Source of the DNA: Candidatus Thorarchaeota archaeon | GTDB lineage: Archaea > Asgardarchaeota > Thorarchaeia > Thorarchaeales > Thorarchaeaceae | Reading direction: 5' to 3' | DNA: 64,000 nt | NCBI GenBank assembly: GCA_963726195.1 | Contig: CAVSBO010000003.1 | Coordinates: 768,001-832,000, forward strand | Shown: piece by piece, positions 4,405 to 21,608 of the stretch | Position numbering within the stretch: the first letter of the stretch is position 1 | How the letters are laid out: each line of letters opens with the position of its first letter | Program-made: the position numbers and the translations under genes | The notes under the pieces: generated by a model | What the model was told of the DNA's origin: nothing | Databases searched by the model: none | The model's input: the letters and a program-made list of their open reading frames with translations, nothing else

Positions 4405-4588
4405 CAGATAGCTTGGTCTCGTGTGCAACAATCAACAAAGCTAATAACAACAAGGCGAGCTTAGTAAGATGGTTTGAGGGCAGACACATGATGCCCACCA
4501 ACCAGCTCCCGCTGTCCAACATGACAAAGCAAAGCAAGCATGCGTGGAACCCAATCTCACATTTACCCCTCACCCTAGGTGCAGGAAT

Positions 4589-7500
4589 ATGCGGATCGAT
4601 TCTTCGGGACCAAGAGAGACCCCGCTCCCTTTTGCCCATGGCATAGAGATAGAACTCCAAGTCATAAGAAAAGACGGTACGTGGATGAGGGGAAATGAGA
4701 TACTCGAGGTCTTCGACAAGCTAGTTTCAAATGCGAAGAACCTGTTGGAGAAGAGAATTAGAACTGCCGAACTAGCATCAGTCAAGACGAAATACAGGCG
4801 GTCTCAACAGACAGAGGAGGGCGAGAGAGGCTCAAGGATTGTAACAAGCTATGTGGACCCTGAGGGTGAGGTGAGGAGCTTCACCCTCATTGGCCATGAT
4901 CCGAATGTCACTAGTTTGACATGGATTCTGGAAGTCTCAACGCCACCATGCACGACACTCGAAGAGCTGGCCTGGTGGGTCCAGACGCTTGTGGCAATTA
5001 GCTACGAATCGTTGCCCAGGGACTCCCACAGCATAATGATCTCGACGGGCCTTAATCCAACCCAAGAGTATCTGAGAAATCTTTCGTTCGGCGAACATCA
5101 TCATATTCTCAGCAAGTCAACAGATGACAAGACGCGCATCGCCGTCTATAATATGATACGCAATTTCATGCCCCATCTCATTGCATTGTCGGTCAACTCG
5201 CCCTTTGAAAACAAGAAGCCTACGGATGTTGTTACTATTGACGACCAAGGTCGTACCCGGGCTCCTCGATGCAAACGCTCGATTCGTCTTCTCAGAAATA
5301 CTACACAGATGGGACCGACCAACGAATTCGAGCTTATACCCTACATCACCAACTTGGACAAGCAGAGTTTCGCAAAGCGTGTCAACAAGAGCTATGCACG
5401 CATGGTGGATGTTTATCCTTTCACTGATTACGATACAATAGAGGTGCGCGTGTTCGACACTCAACTGTCTGTTCCCCGGAGAGTTGGAATCGCGCTAATC
5501 CTGCAAGCACTGGCACTCAAGGCAAAGCACATGGTCGAGAAAGGAGAACCTGTTCCTGACGTCGGTGCCAAGTGCTTGGCTGCCAACCGCGAATCTGCAG
5601 TCGCGGGCAGGTTTGTGGGGTCCTTTCAAGTCTGCTGAGACCCGCGAAAACAATCGCTACATTACAACATACAATTCCACCATAGGTGAAGACGGGTCTA
5701 TCATGGAATCGAGACCGAATCGGTTCATGGCAGATGCGGTTTCGTCCATGTTTTACCTAATCAAGAAGGAATTGGAAGATCTCGGAGCGATTGACAATTC
5801 CTTCATGCAACCCCTTCTTGTTTCTCTGTTCGGAAGCGAATCCACAGAACCAAGAACAACTGGCGCAGACTTTCAGCTGGACGTGTATGCCAAATCCGAC
5901 ATGAATATTGTCGTCTTGCTAAAACGCTTGGCAGACATTACTCGGGAATGCTGCACAAACTGGCTCTACGACCCACTCGAGGGCACACCTCATATGCCAG
6001 CCTGGCTTTGCTGGTGGAAGGGACTTGAACCGGAAATTACGGTAGACTCTGATAGAATCTTCGGAGGTCAGGACGGTGGATTTTCAATATCGCTCAGAAA
6101 CTCGACGAGCCATAATTTTGAAAACGTATCCGTCGGCTACACAATCGAAGACTCTGAAAGACATGTGACAGACCATAGGGTCTTCTCTGTCGCCAGAATG
6201 ACTCCCCGCCAGATCAACAGGACTAAAATCCCCTTCAAGACAACCATGGGCGCCACTGCTTACAACATTATCGTGACGCTAGGAATCGCCGGGAAGTTCA
6301 TCAACCTCTCGACCACAATCAATACATATTGGATGAAAACGACAATCCGACCATCCGCAACCACACAGTTTGCCGATGGCCGCGGACGAGTCTCTTTTTC
6401 GGGGGAAATAGAAACTAACTACCCAAGCAGTATCCGACTGAACATAGGAGTATCAGTACTGTCAATCAAGAAGGAAACAGCACTCGCCCAGACATCCCGT
6501 GTCCAAATGGTAGAGAAGAGTGAAACGCTTCTTTTCGATGAGTCAGTGTTTCCTTCGCTCACCATTCCTGCAGATGCCTCACAGGGTGTCGAAAGATGCG
6601 TGCTCAGGATCGAGCTGGTAGATGAGGCGGGGGTCTTGGTTTCGAGTTCCACATCAAGACCGTTCTACATCGGATTCGTGAGCCAAGGCCCGACGATTCT
6701 TCTTAGAACGAATGCTAAATCTGTCCACGCCTCAGGTGACATGGTGCACGGAGAAGTCGAGCTCAGAGGCAGAGGGGGGCCTCTGCCTAGAGATGCAAGG
6801 TTGGTTATCGCATTCGTGTCAGATTCCGGGACAGCCCTTGGAATTGGTGAATGCAATGCGTCTGAGCTTCTTCGTGATACCTACCGCTTTGATTGGACAG
6901 TACCGCATATGGAGTCCGAGGAAACATCGGACAGGTCCGGAGCAATAGTTGCTCAGCTTCTGGATCAAAGAGAGGAAATCTCCAGGGCTGAGTCCGCAAG
7001 ACTTCGGATTGCTTTGCTTAACATAAGAATGAGTATTGACTCACTAAGGGTTCCCGAAAGGTCAATGGTCGGAGAAGCCGTATCCGGCTGGCTAAGGATA
7101 GAGAGAAACACGGACCTAGGGGACCCTGCGACACTCGTGATGAAGCTTCAATTTCCTAATGGAGAGGAACATCACATTGTGGAACAACCAATTAAGCCAA
7201 ACAAGAACCTCTCAGTCGCGTACGGGCCCATCGTGATACCGAAACCGACCAACGTTCCAAGTCCGAAGCTTGTCACTCTCATCGCCGAACTGCATTACGG
7301 AGGGGCCGTTCTCGATCGCAAGTCCGTTGACATCAATTTGACAGCAGGCCAAAGAGATGAAACACTGGCCCTGAGTGTAAGCGGCGTCCCGCGATTCGCC
7401 GCTCCCGATGAACTAGTGCGCATGGCTGTTGTCATCAGCAACAACTCTCCGGACAACATCAGATGCAATTTGATTGCTAGCCTGGATTCCATATTGGGCA

Positions 7501-8031
7501 TGAAGGAAATCCTAAATCAAGACCTAGAGCTTTCTTCACAACGGGCGAGAACCTTTGACGTTCCCTTCAGAGTGCCACTTGCTGCTGAGATGAGCTCAGC
7601 AGAACTGATACTTGTCGCAGATCATGATGGGAGCAAATGCGAAGCAAGGCACATCATCAAGGTCAAACCAATAGAACAAGCTCTATTTCATGTGGATTTC
7701 TCTCTGAAGAATGAAAGAGGCGAGGAAATCCGGGGTCTGGTCCCGCGACAATCCCCCCTTGACATAACTCTCAAAGTCATGTGCCCAAGGAGTGGAATCG
7801 AGAGTCTCGAAGTCAGCTCTTCGCATTATGTCGAGAAGGCAAGTTGTGGAGGAGTTCAGAATTCCTATGCCACCCAGCAACACGCTCAACTTCGACACCC
7901 GCGTCGGATGGGTAACACCGCCTGTAGAACTCGTGACAGGCTACTATCTTGAAGCTGTGGTCTCAGCTGATGGCAGAGCTCTCCCAGGCCGTGCAGTCAG
8001 TATTGCCGAGAGGCAATTCACAGTCTATTGA
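4589..8031 (+). CDS. GCS2/YbdK-family carboxylate-amine ligase fused to about six C-terminal Ig-like beta-sandwich domains (joined across apparent indels near 5606 and 7816)
   Basis: GCS2 motifs HGIEIELQ, LEVSTPPC, FGEHHHI, PHLIALSVNSPF and TIEVRVFDTQ. ORFs 4544-5638, 5565-7952 and 7792-8031 overlap and read through as one protein if single extra bases are removed; the C-terminal part is repeated ~110-aa beta-rich units. Confidence 0.8.
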
Positions 8032-8316
8032 ATTGGCGTTCCCGGAACACAAGCATCGATTCCTAGAAAGTCTGTCGCCATCAACCAGCAAAGGCGGGCA
8101 GGCAGCCTGCCCAAGGCCACAGAACGGGACCATCCCCTCAAGAACGCCGAATTTGGCCTTCGGACCCTTGGAAAAGACATAATAAGGGCGTTTGGAATTC
8201 TGAACTAACATTTGACACGAAAATCGATACGGGATTTATGCTCATAGAATTCTCCCGTCTTGCACTCATACAATGACTCGTGCTTCGTAACACTAACAAA
8301 TGGATGGATGAGTCGC

Positions 8317-9234
8317 ATGTTCGAACTACTCTCGAACCCGGTTGTTTCCGGACTACTGATAATGACTGTGATTGGAGCGGTAAGCTACAAAGCGCACTTC
8401 GTTGACATATCTGGGTTGATTAGTGCTTTCATGGTTGGATTCATCATTTGGTATGCCGGCGGACCTGCAGCATTCACTATTATTCTGTTCTTCTTTCTAA
8501 GCTCAGGGGTAGCGACCAAGTTCAAGTACAAATCCAAAGCGAAACAAGGAGTAGCCCAAGAAGCGAAGGGAAGAAGATCATGGAGAAACGTGACAGCAAG
8601 CGGCATTGTTCCGGCACTCTTTGCAATCGGCATGTACCTTGCTCCTCGTCTGTCAACTAACCCAGACCTGCCCTTCTTCATGTTCGTAGGGCTCGTTGGC
8701 GCTATCGCAACTACTACCTCAGACAACTTGGCTAGTGAGATTGGAGTGTTCAGCAAGAAGACGCCACGGCTGATAACGAATCTCAGGAGGAAGGTTCCCA
8801 AGGGTACCATAGGTGGAGTCTCTCTCCTAGGGGAACAGGCCGCCTTGGCTGCCGGTTTGGCAATTGGTGTCATTCTGGTCCTATTCGCATACTTCCTGCC
8901 ATCGACTGTACCGATAACGAGGCCAGATCAGATTATGATGTTCATTCCCTTGGCGGCCCTAACAGGTTTTGTTGGCTGCAATATGGATAGTGTTCTTGGT
9001 GCGATGATTCAGAACAAATTCGTATGCGATATCTGTGGAGCAGTCACAGACAAGGAAGTCCACTGCAACTATGCGACCAAGTATGTCGGCGGCTGTACGT
9101 GGTTCTCGAACATGCATGTCAATCTTGGCTCATCAAGTATGGGAGCCGTACTGGGGATGGTCCTCGGCGTAGGCCTCTTTGTGTGGGTGTTCGGCGGGGT
9201 CTTCTTCTGGATACTCGCATCGTCGAGTAGCTAG
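8317..9234 (+). CDS. DUF92/TMEM19-family membrane protein with Cys-rich insert
   Basis: GRRSWRNV, DNLASEIG, GTIGGVSLLG and DSVLGA motifs; CDICG...HC insert. Confidence 0.9.
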   Translation: MFELLSNPVVSGLLIMTVIGAVSYKAHFVDISGLISAFMVGFIIWYAGGPAAFTIILFFFLSSGVATKFKYKSKAKQGVAQEAKGRRSWRNVTASGIVPALFAIGMYLAPRLSTNPDLPFFMFVGLVGAIATTTSDNLASEIGVFSKKTPRLITNLRRKVPKGTIGGVSLLGEQAALAAGLAIGVILVLFAYFLPSTVPITRPDQIMMFIPLAALTGFVGCNMDSVLGAMIQNKFVCDICGAVTDKEVHCNYATKYVGGCTWFSNMHVNLGSSSMGAVLGMVLGVGLFVWVFGGVFFWILASSSS

Positions 9235-9347
9235 TCGCGACGCTCCTCCACCCACAAGTCCCCTTCTTTCCCAGTGTAGATATTCTCATATACGCCACAA
9301 AGGAGCACCCGAGCTCAAGTGCAATCGCACAACTAGGGGTCACAGAG

Positions 9348-10124
9348 ATGCCACCGGTCACGCATTCGCCTGTATATCCTTGGGCTCTCACGGGAGTATT
9401 CGCGGCGTTCCACCTAGTGGTCTCAATGTTACCTTACACGCCTGCAGGAGCCGGGATAATCACGTGGGGCATGGTCTCGGCTGTACTAGTCGGTCTCATT
9501 CTCGGGCCACTCTATGGCACGATCTCTGTTGGAATAGGCTCCATCCTGACAATGATTGCATTCCCGAGCGTGGCCGTCATATCGATATTCACTCCACTTG
9601 CGCCGATGGCCGGGGCCTTGACAGCTGGTGCACTGATAGCCCGCCGCCCGTGGATTCTGTACTGTGTCTTCAGCGCGGCAATTCTGCTCTTCGTCGCCGG
9701 GCCAATAGGATTCATGGCGATAGGATTCCTCTGGCTTCACTGCGCGACTCTTGTGTTCTCATTACTCTACGTTGTTCCCGGGACATCGAGAAAGCTTAGA
9801 AATGGTCTTGAACTATCTAAGGGGACAAGCGCTGTCGTTATTGGTCTGGCATACTGGTTCACAGGTTTCTGTGCACTTATCGCGGACAATCTTGTCGGCT
9901 CTGCCCTCTATCAGTACTATGCGTTTTCAATCGGCTTCGATGCCCCGACCTTGACTGGGATCTACTTGGCAATCATGTTTGTGTATCCTGTGGAGCGCGG
10001 GGTCGCATCGATTGTGCTTGCTGCGATTGCTATTGCCACGAGCAGAGCACTGGCCTCAGCCCACCTGAGTCTTCCCCTGATTGGACTTCACATTGAAGAG
10101 CAAACAGAATTGCTCCGCACTTAA
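9348..10124 (+). CDS. ECF-type transporter substrate-specific (S) component-like membrane protein
   Basis: About 7 TM; LVGLILGPLYG motif and C-terminal YPVER typical of archaeal ECF S components. Confidence 0.6.
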   Translation: MPPVTHSPVYPWALTGVFAAFHLVVSMLPYTPAGAGIITWGMVSAVLVGLILGPLYGTISVGIGSILTMIAFPSVAVISIFTPLAPMAGALTAGALIARRPWILYCVFSAAILLFVAGPIGFMAIGFLWLHCATLVFSLLYVVPGTSRKLRNGLELSKGTSAVVIGLAYWFTGFCALIADNLVGSALYQYYAFSIGFDAPTLTGIYLAIMFVYPVERGVASIVLAAIAIATSRALASAHLSLPLIGLHIEEQTELLRT

Positions 10125-10309
10125 TAGAGAGCAGTCTGGGACCTCTCGGCTGGGTGCAGCTTAAACCGAACTGTCGGAGGACCCCTTCTCTCTTTCATAG
10201 GAGCGAAACTTCATATGCGTTCGCTGCGAGAAGAACCTGGGAATGGGGAATCAGGCCAGCTCTGGTGCCCGCACTGCCCATTTCATTCATGCAAAGGAGC
10301 TGAACTGAA

Positions 10310-11153
10310 TTGCAGTTCGAATTCCTGTTCAACAGCACGCTCTGGACATTCATGATTATCGTGCTCGCGTTTTTCGTGCTTATGTTCGTCGCGAGCGGAA
10401 TCAGGATCTTAAAGGAGTGGGAACGAGTCGCAGTACTTCGTCTCGGCAAGTTCAAGCATATAAAAGGCCCCGGCGTAATCTGGATTATGCCAATCCTCGA
10501 CAAGGTCGCGATGAAGGTTTCTCTTCGACTTCAAACCTACGCTTTCAAGACGGAGAGATCACTCACTCGAGACAACGTTCCAGTTGTCGTGGATGCAGTG
10601 ATGTACTTCAGGGTCATAGAAGTTGAGAAAGCAATCCTCAGCGTTGAGAGGTACGCTGTCGCCGTCGAGCTTGCTGCTCAGACGACACTCCGAGAGGTCA
10701 TAGGCAAGGCACCACTCGACGATCTATTGGCGGAGCGAGACAAGATTGCCGCACATCTGCAGGAAGTCATCGATCTCAAGACTGAACAGTGGGGTATCAA
10801 AGTAACGGCGGTCGAGATTAGAGATGTCGTCATTCCCACTCAGCTGCAGGACGCGATGAGCAGAGAAGCGCAAGCTGAGAGAGAGAAGAGCAAGGGTAAC
10901 GCTGGCTCAAGCAGAGCTGGAAGCCTCTACGGCCATGCTTCAGGCAGCTCGCATATACGAGGAATCGAGCGTCGGTTTTGCGTTGCGTATCTGGAACGTA
11001 ATCCAGCAGATTAGCACGAATGCCAGTCTGATTATGTTGGTGCCTACCAACATACCGGAAGTCGGTCTTAGTGCAGGCACTGCTGCTGCAATAGCGGCGG
11101 GTGCTGGTGGTCTCAAGCTTCAGAGGAAGAAGGCGGCTGAGACAGAGAGCTAG
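10310..11153 (+). CDS. SPFH/band-7 (stomatin-like) protein (frameshift near 10888)
   Basis: N-terminal TM, EWERVAVLRLG, GPG...P.LD, TRDNVPVVVDAV, AQTTLREVIG, WGIKVTAVEIRDV, AEAERE; C-terminus continues in ORF 10935-11153. Confidence 0.9.
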
Positions 11154-11188
11154 ACTACAAGCAATCGAAAAGAAGAGAGAGTGAGAAA

Positions 11189-11899
11189 ATGGACGCTTGG
11201 ATAAAGGTCATCGTCGTGCTGATGATGGTGTCGGCACTGAGCATGATCATAGGGGATCTAATGTTCGATCCATTTGTGGGCTTGATACTGTTGAGTGTCT
11301 TGCTCACATTGATGGTGGTGACCCTGGACCCAGCCACCGGAAAGGCGATGGCTCAGGTTACCATTCCAATCGTTCTCATTCTGTTCGCTTTTCAAGTATT
11401 CCTGAATCCGGGCTTCCAGTTCCAGATATGGATGCTCTTTGTGGTCGGCGCACTTCTGTACATGCTGTTCACCCTCTTTACTGGCGGTGGTGGAACTCTT
11501 GAAGGCGGAATCATCGATGCCAAGCTCTCTCTGAAGCTCTTTCCGCTCTATGGTCTGGCGATAATCATCTCGGTCATTGTGGACCCAACGCGCCGCACGG
11601 CAGTGTATATCATGGTCGGCACTGTGGGTTCACTGATGAGCCTGTACATGGTCTTCCTTCGCAACTACGACAAGTGGCCACAGTATACATACGGTAAGAC
11701 ACGCGATATCACCGCTCTCACAGACATCAATCCAAAGGGCAAAGTTGGGGTGGGATCGGAAATCTGGTGGGCCCGGACAACCGGCCCTCCCATCAGGCAG
11801 GGTGAGAAAGTCATTGTGAAGGCAATGACAGGGCTCACGATGATAGTCGCAAGAGATGAAGAGAGATACTCTCAGGCTGTAGAAGGCCGCAATGATTAG
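11189..11899 (+). CDS. NfeD-like membrane protein (stomatin operon partner)
   Basis: Multi-TM N-terminus plus C-terminal OB-fold GKV.VGSEIWWAR...I..GEKV.V; directly follows the SPFH gene. Confidence 0.8.
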   Translation: MDAWIKVIVVLMMVSALSMIIGDLMFDPFVGLILLSVLLTLMVVTLDPATGKAMAQVTIPIVLILFAFQVFLNPGFQFQIWMLFVVGALLYMLFTLFTGGGGTLEGGIIDAKLSLKLFPLYGLAIIISVIVDPTRRTAVYIMVGTVGSLMSLYMVFLRNYDKWPQYTYGKTRDITALTDINPKGKVGVGSEIWWARTTGPPIRQGEKVIVKAMTGLTMIVARDEERYSQAVEGRND

Positions 11900-11929
11900 C
11901 AAGATTGAGCCGTTGCTTAGCCGGCTCAA

Positions 11930-12744
11930 TCACTTCTTTTCCATCTTCCAGTTTCTCAGGAACACAAACAGGACTAGGAAGCCGAGGAGGAACCCGGGTA
12001 TAGTCGAAACGCCCCACTCAATCTGAAATAGCTCGGGGCGGCCACCGATGTATGTGGGTAGACAGGAAATAGCACGTATGCGATCATGTTCCAGACAAAA
12101 TGGAATGCAATGGGTGCCCATAGCCTGTTGCCGGACAGATAATAGGTGAGACCCAACACAACGCCGCCGAGAAACATGTTAAATGCAAAGATAGCCACAA
12201 GCAGATACGGGACCGACCCCAAGGGCAGCCACCAATTGAAATGAAGCAGGGAGAACACTAGCGAACTGGCACATACCCCTACTGGAAGCCCCCACAGTTT
12301 CGTCATTCGTGACATTAGATAGCCCCTGTAACAGAGCTCCTCGAACACTGCGACAGGAGTCGTGATGATGATTTCACCGGCCAAGAGGTCACCAGTGATT
12401 TCTGATGCTGAACGCAATTGCCCTCCAAACAGCAAAGCCACCAATAGTACGAAGCCTGCCGCTACGATGCCTGCGATTGCGCCAACTGCCAACAGCGAAT
12501 TGGTCTTTGAGTCAACGGTCAATCCCAGCTCCGTGACCGACCTGCCGCCCTCCCATCGTACGAAGATAACAGCTGCAAAGTACATCAACGCAAAGGTCGC
12601 GAAGAACAGGAGCGTGTTTACCATATCATATATGTCGGACCCATACACTGCCGCCGTCAATATAGGAGAGAGCTCGACAATAAGAAGCATGATCAGAGAA
12701 AACAGGACAACCCTGACGAACACAATGCTGCTGGCTCCACTCAT
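11930..12744 (-). CDS. CPBP/Abi (CAAX-like) intramembrane metalloprotease (frameshift near 12035)
   Basis: EELCYRG, FSLLH and HFVWN motifs; last TM continues in ORF 11930-12121. Confidence 0.9.
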
Positions 12745-13023: not shown

Positions 13024-14247
13024 TTGTCAGAAACACGGCGTCTGTTGTTGGATTACGAAACCGATGAAGTTGGTCGGCTGGCCAAGGATGATTCGAGAAT
13101 TCGAGCAGCTCTCATCCAAGCCTTTTCTGATTCATCTGAAATCGTTAGAGAGAGAGCCCTGTTGGCTGCAATCGAGCTCGGGGACCCTCATATTGTAACG
13201 GACGCGTCGAAGACCTTGACTGACGACGATGCTGATGTCAGAGTCGCAGCTGCTCAGCTACTGGCTTGGTATGGCCGAGCCGCGAACTGTTCCAGACCTC
13301 CTTAGGGGACTCAAGGACTCCAACACATGGGTTAGATCACACTGCGCTGCGGGGCTGTCAAAGCTCTTCCTGGCCCAACTTGGGCTCGTGTGCCCAGCAA
13401 GGACATCGACCTATTGGTCTCAGGCCTTCCCGGAATGAGTAATGACGACGTTAGCAGGTTCCTTACCGGACTGGGCATTCAATCCCAAGCGGCAGATCGG
13501 TTCATGACATGGCGCGATGCAAAGTTCAACGTCGAAATCGACATGAGAATAATGCTTGAGGAACTCGAGGGAAAACCCATCATACTGACCGAAGAGAGGA
13601 GGCCAACCAAAGGAAAGACGGTTGAAGCTCCGGGGCTAGCAAGAGGCCTCAGTTTGTCTCCGGGGGTTGAAGCAATACTGGCAGAGCTGCCGGAGCAAAT
13701 CAGAGCTACTCTGCCTCCTGAAGACTTGAGACGCCTGAATGCTACGACGGCTAGAGAACTGGTCGACTCACTCAAGGCGTCATTTCCACGCGAATCCAAG
13801 AAGCCCATCAAAGTTCGGAGAGTCAAGAGAGTCCGGAAGGTGGCGGTTGGACAGACACGAGAGGAATTGATAGGAAGTCTGCCCGACGAAGTGAAAGAGG
13901 AAGTTTCACCAGAGATAATGGACAGTTTGACCAAAGAGGAACTTGAAGCTCTGGTCGGCAAGTCCTCCGAGGAACAGGAGGTCGAGGTGGAGATCGGAGA
14001 GGAAGCCGCTCTGACAGAAGTCGCTGAAGAGCCAAAGGTAGTGGTCGCGAAAGTAGCTTCAGCACCGAGCACACAACAAGCTGATCCGCGTTGGCAGGAA
14101 TTGGTGACTGCTTACGGAGAGGCTAAAGCATACCTGCTCATACAAGTTCCACCCCACATGTTGGAAGGGCTACCGCCCGAACAGATACGGGAAATGGACA
14201 TGGACACTCTCAAGAGCCTCACTGACGCACTCAAGCCTAGGGAATAG
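13024..14247 (+). CDS. HEAT/PBS-lyase repeat protein with acidic C-terminal region carrying three LP-centred helical repeats (joined across indels near 13272 and 13370)
   Basis: HEAT units LIQAFSDSSEIVRERALLA, LTDDDADVRVAAAQLL and LKDSNTWVRSHCAAGL across ORFs 13024-13305, 13229-13438 and 13390-14247. Confidence 0.75.
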
Positions 14248-14250
14248 GTA

Positions 14251-15522
14251 TCACTCTTTGCCGCGTATAACGATCGCAAACTCACTCGCAAGTCGCCCGT
14301 ACCATTCCAGAAGGTCCCGCATGTTGTCAACATGCCTGTAGGTACCATTGCCGTGGTCTGCCATAGCTAGCATGAGCTCTTCGTCAATCTCGCTCCGTTC
14401 ACCCAAGCCGATGCAATATACGACAAACTTCCTGTGACCAGAGAATCGTTCTTTCAGAATCTTCAGTGGAGCGGGCCCAGTAGTAGTCATTCCATCGGTC
14501 AGCATGATAAGCATAGTCGGTTTCTTGGGGTCACCAAAGGCGTCGAGTATCTCGCCAGCCTTCATCAGTGCATCTCCCATATTGGTGAGCGTGCCGCCCT
14601 CCTCCACCTTGTCGATGACATGCGTACTAATGACTTGTAGACCTAGGGCCTTGTTCTTTCCCGTGCATTCAACATACGGTCTTACGTCACCTGTGTCCGG
14701 GTCCATGAAAGTCATTTCACTTACTCCCTTTTCGAAAGTGATAACGGCCACTTTTTCACCATAGCCCCGGCCTACCTTTTCGGCAAGGTATAGTAGAACA
14801 GCCATCGCCGCGGCCTCGGCGCGGGTGACGCTCGTGCCTTCCTCGAATCGGTCTAGAAAAGCTTGGACGTCCGGATTGTCGCCGGCGAGGTCTTTGAGCC
14901 CCTCCCTTGCGTGAGCGATATCTTTCACGGGTACGTCGCCAGTCTTCATCGAACCGCTTGTATCGATGCAAAGGATTGCATTGAATGGCGTTGATATCCC
15001 CACAGTCTTGAACTGATAACCAGTCTTGTTCCTCAATGCCTCGAAGGCGAGCTTCGCGAAATTCCTGCCAGTAAGGGCCGGTCTTGTATTCAGTATCTCA
15101 ACCTTGACTCCTAGCTCGGGCCAGCTAAATGACATTCCCGGGTACACGAGCCGCCCTCCAATGAGCTTCTCAAGTGAGGACACTTTTTCCGCTGCGCGTG
15201 TCACGAGATCCTCGGTATTGGCATCCTCAGTTAGAGGCTTGAGGCCGAACTCGACGTAGTCAAGAGCAGTCATGGGGCGGTCGTACAGTGTCACATCAAC
15301 CCTATCGCCCTCCATCAACAAGGACGCTTCCAGCACAAGGCTGTCGACTATCATCTTGTTCTGAGGGACATCGGGGCTCTTTCGAATCTCGGCGGCGCCC
15401 CAGAAACCGCTCTCAGGATCTTCAAATAGCACGATGGAACCGATATCCGCTTTGAGAGTCTCAGCGGTTTTGGGATGAAGGCTCGCATAGCCCTTTAGCT
15501 CTCCGCCGTCGACGATTTCCAA
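14251..15522 (-). CDS. CDC48/VAT N-domain-like + von Willebrand factor A (VWA) domain protein
   Basis: N-terminal double-psi-barrel-like repeats (ASLHPKTAETLKADIGSIV / MIVDSLVLEASLLMEGDRVDV), then a CDC48_2-like segment (LIGGRLVYPG...VEILNTRP); VWA with intact MIDAS DTSGS...T...LTDG. Confidence 0.8.
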   Translation of the reverse strand: MEIVDGGELKGYASLHPKTAETLKADIGSIVLFEDPESGFWGAAEIRKSPDVPQNKMIVDSLVLEASLLMEGDRVDVTLYDRPMTALDYVEFGLKPLTEDANTEDLVTRAAEKVSSLEKLIGGRLVYPGMSFSWPELGVKVEILNTRPALTGRNFAKLAFEALRNKTGYQFKTVGISTPFNAILCIDTSGSMKTGDVPVKDIAHAREGLKDLAGDNPDVQAFLDRFEEGTSVTRAEAAAMAVLLYLAEKVGRGYGEKVAVITFEKGVSEMTFMDPDTGDVRPYVECTGKNKALGLQVISTHVIDKVEEGGTLTNMGDALMKAGEILDAFGDPKKPTMLIMLTDGMTTTGPAPLKILKERFSGHRKFVVYCIGLGERSEIDEELMLAMADHGNGTYRHVDNMRDLLEWYGRLASEFAIVIRGKE

Positions 15523-17285: not shown

Positions 17286-19947
17286 ATGATAGTCGTTGAG
17301 GACATCGAAAGCAGGGAAATCAAACCCTTGTTTATCGCCGACTCATTCGTTCAGCTCGGATTAGTCAGAGCCGGGACCGAAGTCCGTTCATTTGACCCCG
17401 GCAGGATACTATCCTTCTATGGCATGCTCGAAGGGCAGCTCCACGACTTGGCATCAAGGTATCCGGGGGCATTCAAGCATCTTCCTCGCAAAGCCTACGC
17501 CTATCTGAAGCGTCCCCCAATCTTGACCGAGATTCATTCCAGCGGCCTGGATCCTTCCAACACTAGCTGGTTTGTTGACCTGTTCTTTGCAAGACCCCTG
17601 ATATCCATTGGGGGGCAACAGACTTTCTGAACAGCATCAGAACAAGAATGCCGAACTAACCCGGAGGTGGTCTGAGCAGCTGCCTCACAGTCCTCGGTTC
17701 TACTATCTTCAGGATATGCGTCAAGGGAGAATCGGCTCACCAGGATGGGGTTGTGTTCTCAGTCCGACCGACTTGGGAAACTCACAGAGTGGGCCGAGTG
17801 GCTCGGAGCTCCGTCGATATGTGGAATCGGGATTACCAGTATTCATGGAGTGGACAAGTATGATGATCTGGATCTCTTGGTCAAGTGGTTAGTAGAGCTG
17901 AAAGAATGCCAAGATGGGCAGTCCAAATCTGATGCTTTCTGTACGGAGTTACAAGGAGTGGGGCGAGGGAATAACGAAGTTGCTCGAAATCCCGAGCGCC
18001 AGATTGCTGACCTCCGGGGCAACGATAGGGTTGCTCTCCACAGTAATATCACACCTTCGGAAGAACACTGACATCGTTCCATGGTCCAGCAAGCTCGTCT
18101 TCGGTAGCGGGTATCCTGAGACTCACACAGGTGATAGCATATCTGAGGTGTTGAGCTTCCTATTGAGTCGGAACTTGGCCGCTTCCACGGATGACCTGCA
18201 GCGGATATTTGCCACCAACTTGCTGTCAGTTCTGCCTCCGAGACCTCCTTTCCTCGACTACCGGAGCAGCAATGACACAGTGGTGTCAGAAGGAATGTTT
18301 GGTAAGGCATGTATCAAAGAACTGGCAAGAGTGCTTCTTTTGCTAGCGACAAAGGGAAGGCTCTATGTCTACTCTGTCGATCATATGCTGTCCAGTGACA
18401 GTGGCTCCGTAGACCTAAACTGCGGGATTGTTACTCTGAAGGACCCCGCCTCTTTGACCGCAAGTAGTCTGGCTATCCTCATCGAACGCGACGGCACTCT
18501 CAGGATTGCTGGTTGGCGAAACGCCTTTGGAGAAACTTCATCATCGAGAAGAAGCGAAGTTCTGGCGACACTGATCAGGGCCTCAACTCACTCCAGCGGT
18601 CCGATTCTGACTTCGCCGGCCCACTTGAGCCAATTCGATTGGGCGGTCCTAAGATGCCTTCAACTGAAGGATTCACAGGAAGTCCTCTCTTCTCTGCACT
18701 TCAAGGTGGAGCCAGATGATGTCCAGCCGCGACTTGTTGTTGTATCGCGTGATGATATGAATGCTCTCGGCCTATCTGAAGGGGATACTGTGCTAGCCCT
18801 AGTTGGAGGCACTGGAGAATGGTTATCGGCCAAGGCTGCACGGCACGAAGGCCCGAGCAGGCGGGTCCTGATATCCAGAAAGGACGCGCTCCTCTTTGGG
18901 CTCAGCGACCGGACTTTGGTAGATCTGGTGAAATACGAAGGCCATGTTTCTGAACTCGATGAGGCAGTGTTTTCATTCTCAATCTCCAAGCGATGGCCCG
19001 ATGGAGAACTCTCATCCTATATCTATCTGCATGATAAGCCTCTTAGAAGAGAACTTGAGAACCGAGCGTTAGGACTTGGCATGAAACTGAGGATCGGAAG
19101 AGGAGAGCACAAGCTAACCCTGAGCTTAGCTCATACAGAACCTGAACTTGTGCCTGGACAAGTTGGCGTCGCTCCTTCATCCGCAATATCATTCTGGCCA
19201 GCTCAGCTGCTCGAAGATGTGAATATCATCCTGTGTCTTCTAAATGACCAAAGCATGAAAACCAGAGACGTTAGAATAAGAACTGTGTCTTCTGCTCAGA
19301 GAAGGTTCACTCGCTTCTCTGGTCAAATGCCCGAGCTCGGTGCTTTCCTTTCCAGACTCGGAGCGCAGGCAACTCGGGCTGAACTGGCAGGCCTGATTTC
19401 CCTGTTGACAATCCAACAAATGTCTGCAAACCGTACCGAAGGACGCCTTGCCTTTGTAAGTATCTCGGACCAAGCACACAAGTACTGCATTCAGAAGGGG
19501 GGTCAAGTGCAGCCCTATGCCGAGTTCCTTCACGACCTGTCGACTCGCGAAGTCCTGATCTCACTTGTCTATTCTGTACTGGATTCGCTCGGTGAAGCTG
19601 ACAAGCAGTTAAACGTGGCGGCGGTCTATCATTCTGTTGCTGAGCTCTTGCAAGAATTCGGGACTGAAAGGCCTACTCTGGTCATAGTCATTGGAAATCA
19701 GCTGAAAGGCAATGAAGAAGAAGTTGAACCCTTCTTGAGCCGATTCTCGGAACTCGGCCGTTATCAGATGGACATTCTTGGCCTTGGAGATGACTTTGAT
19801 GCTAGGGAAACCCGCAAGATGGTCAAATCTCTGAACGCCCGCATAATCCCCATCAAGTCCTTCTCTGCGCAGCTCTATGATGATTACTTGCTGTCCGCCA
19901 TCGGTCGGCTATTGTCGGACAAGGCTCAAACCGGACCAAGTGACTAG
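17286..19947 (+). CDS. Fusion of degenerate amidohydrolase + CDC48-N-like + degenerate VWA domain (~885 aa; joined across about three indels at 17600-17915)
   Basis: Collinear similarity to both 15607-17121 and 14251-15522 (see findings); catalytic motifs substituted. Confidence 0.75.
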
Positions 19948-19975: not shown

Positions 19976-21106
19976 CTAAGTGATCATAGTCTGGTAAGTC
20001 TGGACAGCTGCCGTCTTCGATCCACAGAGAACTTCCACTCTCAAACTCGCCTTGCCCTTCTCATCCGACATCGCGATGAGCCCAACGTTGATGGTCTCGT
20101 CTGCTCTCGGGTTGATTTCATGCAGCTCATTCGCTATCTCGGACACCCCGTCAGATGTGATGAGACTAGCGACGATTCGAATCCCGACGTGTGCAGGACT
20201 AGGGTTTCGCACTCTGATTCTGAATGGAAAAGACTTACCCGGCAGTATTGTGTTCGGCACGTTTCCAAGTTCCACGGTGAGGCTTGTTTGAGATGGTGTC
20301 AGTGGTCGGCCACTTGGCCAAGCAGGAATTCGTCCTCAGCTCAATGAGCCTCGACAACGAGGTCTTGAATGCCCTAACTTCCAGGCCAAGCTCAGTCGCC
20401 GCTTCGCCTATATCGAAAACACCATCGTGAGAGACGTAGTGAGCAAGAATGCGCCGGTCGACTTCGATAAGGTCGCCCAAGCCCTCAAGTATTGTTAGGA
20501 TTGCCTCGGGAAGCTGGTAGGCTTCCGTTAGAGAATAGTACTTTCCACCATCAACAGACTCAGCAATGCTTCTGAAAGATTGCTCCACTAACGGATTGCA
20601 GACCGCAGACAAAAACGAACATCGTGTCGCCGTGAAGTCTCTTCAGCGACTGGACCTCAGACCGAGGATCATGTCCGTCGGGGCATCCGTCAGGGAAGTA
20701 GTCATCTGCGAGTGTGTTGTAGGTTCTCCCGTGAGGAGGCGCATCACCCACCAGAAGGAGGACCTTGTATGAATCCTTCTCCCACGAGAGCTTGGTTCGA
20801 GCATCGTAGAGACCGTCAGCTGACTGCCTCTGGGATATCGCCACCTTCAGACGGATTCAACGCCGAGATTTCCTTGTATACTGACTTGATCTTGTCAGTA
20901 AAATCGAAGACGCGCGTGACGTATGTGTAATCTTGTGGTGGATGGTCGCGATAAGAAACAATCCCGAATCGGATGTGCAATCCCTTTGTCCTTTCCACAA
21001 CTTTGTCCACTATTCGGAAAAGACTGTCTCGTACTGCATTTATGTCGTCCTTCATCGACCCCGTGGTATCGACAACGAAGGCGATATCCAGGTTCGTTTC
21101 TGCCAG
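19976..21106 (-). CDS. VWA domain + winged-HTH + Ig-like domain protein (joined across indels near 20820, 20600 and 20330)
   Basis: DIAFVVDTTGSM MIDAS, FGIVSYRDHPPQD, GGDIPEAV, LVGDAPPHG; then DRRIL...IGEAATELGL...SLSRLIE wHTH and a beta-rich C-terminus. Start (CTG after GGAGTGA) is uncertain. Confidence 0.75.
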
Positions 21107-21215
21107 CCCAATTCACTCCGGCTGTGCGTCGAGGACCAGCCGCAATTAAGCCTTTGTAACCACAGGCCACAGCACATTTTAGGTCTGAAGCTAAACGTTT
21201 GCTGTCGTGAGTTTG

Positions 21216-21608
21216 ATGAGTGAAAGCGAAGTGCCCATAGAACTCGAATTCGGAGAAGGACTGGTTCTGAAAGGCGTACTGGACCGAATCCTTGGCCCAC
21301 TGATAGTCGAGGAAATCAAGTACCGGCTCCCAATCACTGGGAAGGCCGCCGTGATTGCCGGACAGGTGAAAATTACCGTGGGGTTGAAAGCCGGGAATCT
21401 GAAAGCATCGACAGATGCCAAGCAAGGGGACATAGCGTACAACCCGCTAGGAGACTCTCTCGATATCTACCTGAAGGACATGCATGTTACTGGTCGAGTC
21501 AACATAATCGGGAGGATAACATCGAGCAAGGATTCTCTGGAAAAGTTAGCGAGCATAAGACGAGGTGCCAATGTCCTTATCCGCTCCGCAAGTCAGGCAA
21601 AGCGATAG
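21216..21608 (+). CDS. Cyclophilin-like fold protein (DUF369-like)
   Basis: LPITGKA...GDIAYNPLGDSLDIY...VNIIGRI pattern of the TM1367/AF2241 cyclophilin-like family. Confidence 0.75.
   Translation: MSESEVPIELEFGEGLVLKGVLDRILGPLIVEEIKYRLPITGKAAVIAGQVKITVGLKAGNLKASTDAKQGDIAYNPLGDSLDIYLKDMHVTGRVNIIGRITSSKDSLEKLASIRRGANVLIRSASQAKR

Follow-up and report, generated by a model that had tools for sequence, protein, structure and literature searches.

A Cdc48-Type N Domain Joined to a von Willebrand Factor A Domain in Asgard Archaea and Its Genomic Association with an Amidohydrolase and a GCS2-Like Ligase

Genes at the locus

We analyzed a stretch of 64,000 nucleotides, referred to here as the window, from the genome of a Candidatus Thorarchaeota archaeon (GenBank assembly GCA_963726195.1, contig CAVSBO010000003.1, positions 768,001 to 832,000). 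The genome assembly comprises 2.9 Mb in 19 contigs and is 88.9% complete. The gene under study, P0001, codes for a protein in which a domain of the type found at the N terminus of Cdc48/p97 precedes a von Willebrand factor A (VWA) domain; proteins of this composition are termed N-VWA proteins below. The three other components of interest in the window are the amidohydrolase P0003, a GCS2-like carboxylate-amine ligase, and a paralog in which an amidohydrolase-like part and an N-VWA part are fused. The coordinates of all of these features are compiled in Table 1.

Orthologs of P0001 in Thorarchaeota share 65 to 93% sequence identity with it, and a library-wide phmmer search retrieved about 60 full-length relatives with identities of 21 to 64%. 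An alignment of 38 homologs served as the basis for the AlphaFold2 models, for the N-domain family profile, and for the conservation counts given below. In databases, members of this family are named either "VWA domain-containing protein" or "hypothetical protein"; a scan against NCBIfam provided no useful match, and we found no article on the N-VWA family in the literature searched. All of the individual domains are known. What is undescribed in that literature is (i) the combination of a Cdc48-type N domain with a VWA domain carrying a metal ion-dependent adhesion site (MIDAS) in the absence of an ATPase, (ii) its amidohydrolase partner, (iii) the co-inherited ligase, and (iv) the fusion with a pseudoenzyme.

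Table 1. Location of the features discussed in this study (window positions)
Feature	Position	Strand	Description and basis
P0001	14251-15522	minus	423 aa, Cdc48-type N domain and VWA domain; stop codon at 14251-14253; open reading frame (ORF) and translation
N domain, P0001 residues 1-176	14995-15522	minus	Predicted double-psi beta-barrel lobe (residues ~1-84) and beta-clam lobe (residues ~85-176)
VWA domain, P0001 residues 177-423	14254-14994	minus	Pfam VWA_2 and structure matches
MIDAS loop 1, DTSGS, P0001 residues 187-191	14950-14964	minus	Regular-expression match; site completed by T313 and D343
P0003	15607-17121	minus	504 aa, Amidohydro_2 TIM-barrel metalloenzyme with C-terminal X domain; directly upstream of P0001
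Fused paralog	17286-19947	plus	Amidohydrolase predicted to be dead, X domain, N domain, and VWA domain without MIDAS
P0002	17914-19947	plus	Intact ORF corresponding to the 3' part of the fused paralog
N-domain copy, P0002 residues 274-419	18733-19170	plus	Family profile (hmmsearch), E = 7e-9, profile positions 12-156
VWA-like domain, P0002 residues 437-626	19222-19791	plus	BLASTP to the P0001 VWA domain, E = 2e-14, 24% identity
GCS2-like carboxylate-amine ligase	4544-7952	plus	~1150 aa in two overlapping frames; Pfam GCS2, 29.5 bits (cut-off, 21)

A Cdc48-type N domain outside an ATPase

In AAA+ unfoldases and in a few stand-alone adaptors, Cdc48-type N domains form the head that binds cofactors and substrates. 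The N domain of P0001 was modeled alone with a predicted local distance difference test (pLDDT) score of 92.5, and the full-length model reached 88.6. Foldseek superposed both lobes on p97/Cdc48 N domains with template modeling (TM) scores of 0.66 to 0.73 and E values of approximately 1e-10, and the double-psi barrel that a preliminary description had read from the sequence was thus confirmed in the predicted structure. Using VIA-align, the closest structure was the N domain of CDC48A (Z score of 14.6, root mean square deviation [rmsd] of 2.8 Å over 158 residues), and this alignment spans model residues 1 to 176. The N domains of PEX1 (Z score of 13.4), NSF/Sec18 (13.4), Pex6 (N1, 12.0), and VAT (11.7), the N-terminal domain (NTD) of DEPDC5 (11.4, over 154 residues), and UFD1 (10.7) were also matched. 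The double-psi beta-barrel (DPBB) lobe on its own aligned with that of VAT at a Z score of 12.3 (78 residues, 1.7 Å).

In sequence searches of the Protein Data Bank (PDB), Cdc48 was detected by the family profile only. Single-sequence phmmer searches with the N regions of P0001 and P0002 retrieved nothing, whereas the profile aligned with Cdc48 along the double-psi barrel (E value of 8e-6); hits to Cdc48 and to designed DPBB proteins had E values between 1e-6 and 8e-6, and DEPDC5 was found at 2.4e-4. P0001 itself has no match to Pfam PF02359 at an E value of ≤1, and its first 180 residues are blank in the Pfam scan. Subthreshold matches to PF02359 were obtained for 18 of the 38 homologs, with a best E value of 3.8e-7; the best homolog scored 30.7 bits and did not reach the gathering threshold of 35.1 bits. 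Nine of the 38 homologs matched Molydop_binding, a related barrel.

A motif scan of P0001 found no Walker A motif, in agreement with the preliminary description, and the place of the AAA+ D1 and D2 domains is taken by the VWA domain. According to the models, the N-terminal region of P0001 is therefore a genuine two-lobed Cdc48-type N domain that is detached from any AAA+ module, and the initial proposal of an ATPase-free Cdc48/p97 N domain fused to VWA holds. The domain shares the double-psi barrel followed by a beta-clam with the N domains of Cdc48/p97/VAT, NSF/Sec18, and PEX1/PEX6 (PF02359 and PF02933). Unlike in Cdc48/p97, it precedes a VWA domain, with neither D1/D2 nor a Walker motif, and whereas the p97 N domain binds UBX, SHP, and VIM cofactors, the ligand predicted for the N domain of P0001 is a TIM-barrel enzyme (see below). 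P0001 resembles Ufd1-like stand-alone adaptors in having an N-type domain outside an ATPase as a binding module. Unlike Ufd1, it has no evident Npl4- or Cdc48-binding tail, its N domain is fused to a MIDAS-containing VWA domain, and its ortholog group has no ubiquitin link.

A classical VWA domain with an intact MIDAS

Residues 177 to 423 form a classical VWA domain with an intact MIDAS. Pfam VWA_2 matched residues 183 to 403 with 34.9 bits (cut-off, 27) and was the sole Pfam domain in P0001. Structure comparison placed this domain at Z scores of 20 to 22 from 4fx5 (22.5), ITIH1, TFIIH p44, and BatB, followed by ArnB (19.9), Rpn10 (17.9), and Sec23/24 (17 to 18), and the sequence profile matched ArnB at an E value of 1.8e-13. 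The MIDAS is complete, consisting of the DTSGS loop, T313, and D343. All 38 homologs retain D187, S189, and D343, and almost all retain S191 and T313; 12 of these homologs also matched VWA_CoxE weakly. In other VWA proteins, such as integrin I domains and Rea1, ligands bind to the MIDAS through an acidic side chain or a carboxylate.

ArnB (8s05), TFIIH p44/Ssl1, Rpn10, the Sec23/24 trunk, and BatA/BatB thus have the same classical VWA fold as P0001 (Z scores of 17 to 21), but none of them possesses a Cdc48-type N-terminal domain or an amidohydrolase partner. The likeness to the ubiquitin receptor Rpn10 is one of fold only, since the arrangement of a VWA domain followed by a ubiquitin-interacting motif (UIM) was not found in P0001: its sequence stops directly past the VWA domain, which excludes UIM-like tails.

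The amidohydrolase and its predicted complex with P0001

P0003 was assigned to the amidohydrolase family PF04909 with 34 bits (cut-off, 26.4), and a profile of its orthologs gave a weak amidohydrolase match in the PDB (3nur; E value of 0.0096). The metal ligands of the pattern HxH...H...H...D are retained: in 24 orthologs, H182, H250, and D308 are invariant and H29 and H31 are nearly invariant. The C-terminal X domain had no PDB match with the same profile. Across Thorarchaeota, P0001 is about 76 to 80% identical, compared with about 50% for its enzyme partner P0003, which is unusual in a presumed accessory subunit.

We co-folded P0003 with P0001 in three runs, using a separate alignment for each partner. 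The runs gave interaction prediction scores from aligned errors (ipSAE) of 0.66, 0.66, and 0.48, and the best control gave 0.00. In the calibration, 58 of 80 solved complexes and 2 of 110 mismatched pairs attained this ipSAE mark, figures that hold only roughly for custom alignments such as those used here. The runs agreed in at least 81% of the contacts, and the pLDDT of the partners was at least 78. To our knowledge, no comparable complex has been solved that the co-fold might reproduce. Taken together, these data suggest that P0001 and P0003 form a complex.

In the predicted complex, the confident contacts of P0001 come from (i) the double-psi lobe (residues 5 to 8, 38 to 40, and 61 to 73), (ii) the second lobe (residues 95 to 102, 129, and 140 to 144), and (iii) the linker and an insertion of the VWA domain (residues 175 to 179, 203 to 214, and 251 to 253). 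On the side of P0003, the contacts lie on loops beside the metal ligands (residues 33 to 55, 89 to 94, 126 to 137, 184 to 189, 216 to 220, 253, and 280). The MIDAS residues are absent from the listed interface.

A fused paralog with a degenerate active site

P0002 had been described as carrying a second, more canonical copy of the N domain. An N domain is indeed present there (Table 1), but Pfam CDC48_N scored it at only 0.059, and the gene is longer than ORF P0002 and frameshifted. A tblastn search showed that orthologs of the fused paralog, with lengths of 873 to 890 aa, span positions 17286 to 19947 in two frames, with about three frameshifts between 17600 and 17914, and two genomes of the same genus contain the gene as an intact ORF of 901 aa. 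At its N terminus, P0002 is a paralog of the C-terminal half of P0003. In the manner of Rosetta-stone proteins, these fusions of 850 to 900 aa thus follow the operon order, with an amidohydrolase-like part, the X domain, the N domain, and a VWA-like domain in succession. The metal ligands have been lost, with HHH replaced by SFV or SAS and the catalytic D replaced by G or S, and no DxSxS motif was found in the VWA-like domain of P0002, the MIDAS of which is degenerate. Judged from these replacements, the fused paralog is catalytically dead.

Frameshifts interrupt three genes of the cluster, namely, the fused paralog (17286 to 17914), the ligase (~5565 to 5638), and a gene for a HEAT-repeat protein (~13290 to 13390); P0001 and P0003 are intact. 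They may be assembly indel errors, one being located at a run of six G residues (17611 to 17616), or may reflect recent decay.

Gene order and co-occurrence in Asgard genomes

The amidohydrolase gene lies immediately upstream of the N-VWA gene in a further Thorarchaeota locus (L001), in locus L002, and in Asgardarchaeum (L003). In the complete Thorarchaeota genome represented by L001, the order of the fused paralog, amidohydrolase, N-VWA, HEAT protein, Rce1-like protein, NfeD, and SPFH genes is the same as in the window. In L003, the amidohydrolase and N-VWA genes are followed by a convergent gene for a GCS2-like ligase of 1144 aa, the N-terminal 420 residues of which (L003:11459-12718) matched YbdK (1r8g) and 1tt4 in a PDB search. 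The ligase gene adjoins the amidohydrolase/N-VWA pair in L003 and in the genomes G006, G038, and G102, and it is located about 10 kb from the pair in Thorarchaeota genomes.

We then searched 201 Asgard genomes with the ligase and with profiles of the N domain and the amidohydrolase. Matches to the two enzymes were confined to nine families, common to both: f1 (35/43), f2 (1/1), f6 (1/1), f7 (5/5), f9 (38 to 39/40), f19 (6/6), f22 (7 to 8/10), f24 (1/3), and f27 (3/3). The remaining 18 families of this genome set yielded neither enzyme. All N-domain matches stronger than 1e-28 fell within the same nine families, and the weaker matches in other families, at about 1e-6, are probably the N domains of true Cdc48 proteins. 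The amidohydrolase and N-VWA genes are adjacent in f1, f2, f6, f7, and f19; in f22, the amidohydrolase, ligase, and N-VWA genes follow one another in that order on one strand. The ligase adjoining the amidohydrolase in f9 is shorter (about 570 aa), and an N-VWA gene with extra DPBB repeats is found on the same contig at a distance of 9 to 50 kb. Proteins of this kind from f9-type genomes (P0132, P0136, P0137, P0138, and P0145) have 590 to 830 aa, with the complete N domain and VWA domain being preceded by one to three additional double-psi barrel repeats.

Copy numbers and losses follow the same pattern. Members of f7 and f19 contain two copies of each component, organized as two separate triads, plus one fused paralog. 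Five Thorarchaeota genomes with a completeness of 74 to 99% (G027, G037, G063, G098, and G173) lack all three components, and three others (G005, G016, and G055) lack the amidohydrolase and have weak N-domain matches only. Related genomes are not independent samples in this pattern; nevertheless, when the identical family distribution is combined with the agreement in copy number and with the fusion, a functional link is difficult to dismiss.

A probable three-component Asgard module

We consider it probable that P0001 is a cytoplasmic, noncatalytic binding subunit that targets or gates the amidohydrolase, within an Asgard module that also includes the GCS2-like ligase. This reading builds on the domain folds, on gene linkage and fusion, on the phyletic pattern common to the components, and on a co-fold that passed its controls; from these, we infer the complex itself, a role for the MIDAS, and all of the chemistry. 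The two N-domain lobes and the VWA insertion would contact the TIM barrel on its loop face, where the metal ligands are located, and the N domain would thus serve as a docking surface for this enzyme instead of for Cdc48 cofactors. The MIDAS, being outside the predicted interface, may be left free to hold a carboxylate or acidic group of a third molecule. The ATP-dependent ligase would make an amide or isopeptide bond, the amidohydrolase would act on the ligase product or a related one, and the N-VWA protein would target or gate the hydrolase. The catalytically inactive fused paralog might act as a scaffold or regulator.

In nine Asgard families, gene order, fusion, and co-inheritance tie a Cdc48-type N module to two enzymes, one expected to form amide bonds and one expected to cleave them. 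The module is widespread in the closest prokaryotic relatives of eukaryotes, where its components carry public names such as "VWA domain-containing protein," "amidohydrolase," and "hypothetical." If they hold, the ubiquitin link of the sister subfamily described below and the domain order in common with DEPDC5/Iml1 would bear on the origin of eukaryotic signaling and degradation scaffolds.

Several points weigh against this proposal. (i) The co-fold is a model and not a measurement, and the interface predicted on P0003 is not clearly enriched in conserved residues, with about 10 of 36 positions being invariant, compared with 22% for the whole protein. (ii) In f9, f24, and f27, the N-VWA gene lies apart from the enzyme pair. 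(iii) There is no amidohydrolase nearby in the loci from Heimdallarchaeota (L004) and Promethearchaeota (L005) or in the ubiquitin-linked locus (L006), which shows that an amidohydrolase is not the exclusive partner of the N-VWA module. (iv) A metabolic pathway is as possible as protein modification, since the PF04909 enzymes so far characterized act on small molecules.

A protein-directed ligase is conceivable, since the Pup ligase PafA is thought to be derived from a GCS2 precursor (PMC2588565). The ligase, amidohydrolase, and N-VWA protein, together with the dead paralog, might then form an Asgard-specific writer, eraser, and reader of an amide-linked protein tag, analogous to pupylation or ubiquitylation, in which the N-VWA protein reads the carboxylate-bearing, modified substrate. 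In a sister lineage, the N-VWA module would have been taken up by the ubiquitin system, and in eukaryotes, it may have entered DEPDC5; we regard this extended reading as a whole as doubtful. Like PafA and Dop, the Asgard system would pair a ligase with a hydrolase, and the co-inherited Asgard ligase belongs to the GCS2 branch. Unlike Dop, which has the ligase fold, the hydrolase of the Asgard module is an amidohydrolase TIM barrel, and a protein substrate is hypothetical.

Alternative readings

The preliminary description had considered P0001 an adaptor that recruits substrates to, or mimics, a Cdc48/proteasome machine encoded elsewhere. A nonenzymatic binding module is indeed the most plausible role; a link to Cdc48 or the proteasome is not supported for this gene, whose conserved partners are an amidohydrolase and a ligase. 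In its specific form, P0001 would be a ubiquitin- or UBX-type adaptor for, or an N-domain mimic of, that machine, with the N domain binding beta-grasp proteins and the VWA domain acting as in Rpn10. This agrees with the ranking of Cdc48/p97 as the closest relative of the N domain, with the matches to UFD1 and to the Rpn10 VWA domain, and with the presence of two Cdc48 genes in the genome. In addition, the relatives P0155, P0159, and P0283 possess a C-terminal ubiquitin-like domain (PF00240; 9.4e-6), and the gene of P0283 (L006:5098-11087), which combines an N domain, a VWA domain, and the ubiquitin-like domain, adjoins genes for a RING-like zinc finger protein, JAB, E2 (UQ_con), E1 (ThiF), and ubiquitin. 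However, no Cdc48, proteasome, or ubiquitin genes were found in the neighborhoods of P0001 and its orthologs, both true Cdc48 genes are located on other contigs (C16 and C4), PF00240 was unmatched in the 88.9% complete genome, and the end of P0001 leaves no space for UIM-like tails. The partner that is conserved and fused is the amidohydrolase, to which the N domain is predicted to bind. We therefore judge this adaptor role unlikely for P0001. The ubiquitin idea holds up solely for the sister subfamily, which demonstrates that a connection between the N-VWA module and ubiquitin signaling can exist.

Two further possibilities appear still less likely to us. P0001 might be an Asgard relative or precursor of the NTD-SABA part of DEPDC5/Iml1, the scaffold of the Rag GTPase-activating protein complex GATOR1/SEACIT, and bind longin-domain proteins. 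With the full-length model, Foldseek placed DEPDC5/Iml1 chains at ranks 1 to 10, with E values down to 1.6e-13 and about 425 aligned columns, and both the N-domain model and the family profile match the DEPDC5 NTD, as detailed above. The literature also speaks for this possibility: the DEPDC5 NTD is NSF-N-like and its SABA domain Sec23-trunk-like, in a composition described as unique (PMC8534245), and NPRL2-like proteins are reported for most Thorarchaeota metagenome-assembled genomes, with no DEPDC5 counterpart (bioRxiv 10.1101/2020.10.19.343400). Domain order, with an N-type domain followed by a VWA-like alpha/beta domain, and similar total size are common to both proteins. Yet the query-based TM score (TMq) of the Foldseek matches was just 0.36 to 0.38 with an rmsd of about 10 Å, as would be expected from one superposed domain, and all 50 listed rows of a rigid-body VIA search with the whole model were VWA proteins, DEPDC5 not being among them. 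ITIH1, TFIIH p44, and ArnB resemble the VWA domain of P0001 more than Sec23/24 does, and for the N domain, Cdc48 is a closer match than DEPDC5. PF12257 (IML1) and PF06218 (NPR2) were unmatched in the genome, and PF12257 was also unmatched in the Pfam scan of P0001 (E value of ≤1). Unlike DEPDC5/Iml1, P0001 lacks the SHEN, DEP, and C-terminal domains and has an intact MIDAS, and its conserved partners are enzymes, with no longin proteins or GTPases among them. In view of the VWA-only rigid-body lists, the closer relationship of the N domain to Cdc48, and the blank family searches, homology to DEPDC5 was set aside, and we retain it as an evolutionary link of low probability. We attach a similarly small chance to a role of P0001 as an assembly or activation factor for the metal center of the amidohydrolase, in which the MIDAS would handle the metal or an active-site loop, as for the VWA partners of MoxR-type systems, i.e., CoxE, NorD, CbbO, and ViaA. 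The predicted interface on P0003 covers the barrel face with the metal ligands, the MIDAS is strictly conserved, and the weak VWA_CoxE matches point in the same direction. On the other hand, no AAA+ gene adjoins N-VWA in the window, in L001, or in L003 to L006 (MoxR was searched for in these neighborhoods and not elsewhere in the genome), and such a factor would leave unexplained both the strict co-inheritance with the ligase and the existence of the dead fused paralog. We consequently prefer the reading of P0001 as a binding subunit of the amidohydrolase.

Other genes in and around the locus

The interval between the ligase and the P0003/P0001 pair (8260 to 12744) contains genes for DUF92, SPFH/Band 7 and NfeD, and Rce1-like CAAX protease proteins, in an order kept in L001. 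The HEAT-repeat protein is encoded convergently with P0001, its end being 3 bp from the P0001 stop codon, and its C-terminal part (13390 to 14247) is rich in E and K and carries repeated LP-containing helices. The Heimdallarchaeota contig (L004:3434-13871), in which no amidohydrolase lies nearby, carries a row of N-VWA or VWA paralogs of 431, 412, 414, and 422 aa. A gene for a third VWA protein in the window (19976 to 21425, minus strand) is convergent with the fused paralog and split into several ORF fragments; its Thorarchaeota ortholog (L001:4426-5604; 392 aa) matches VWA_4 and VWA.

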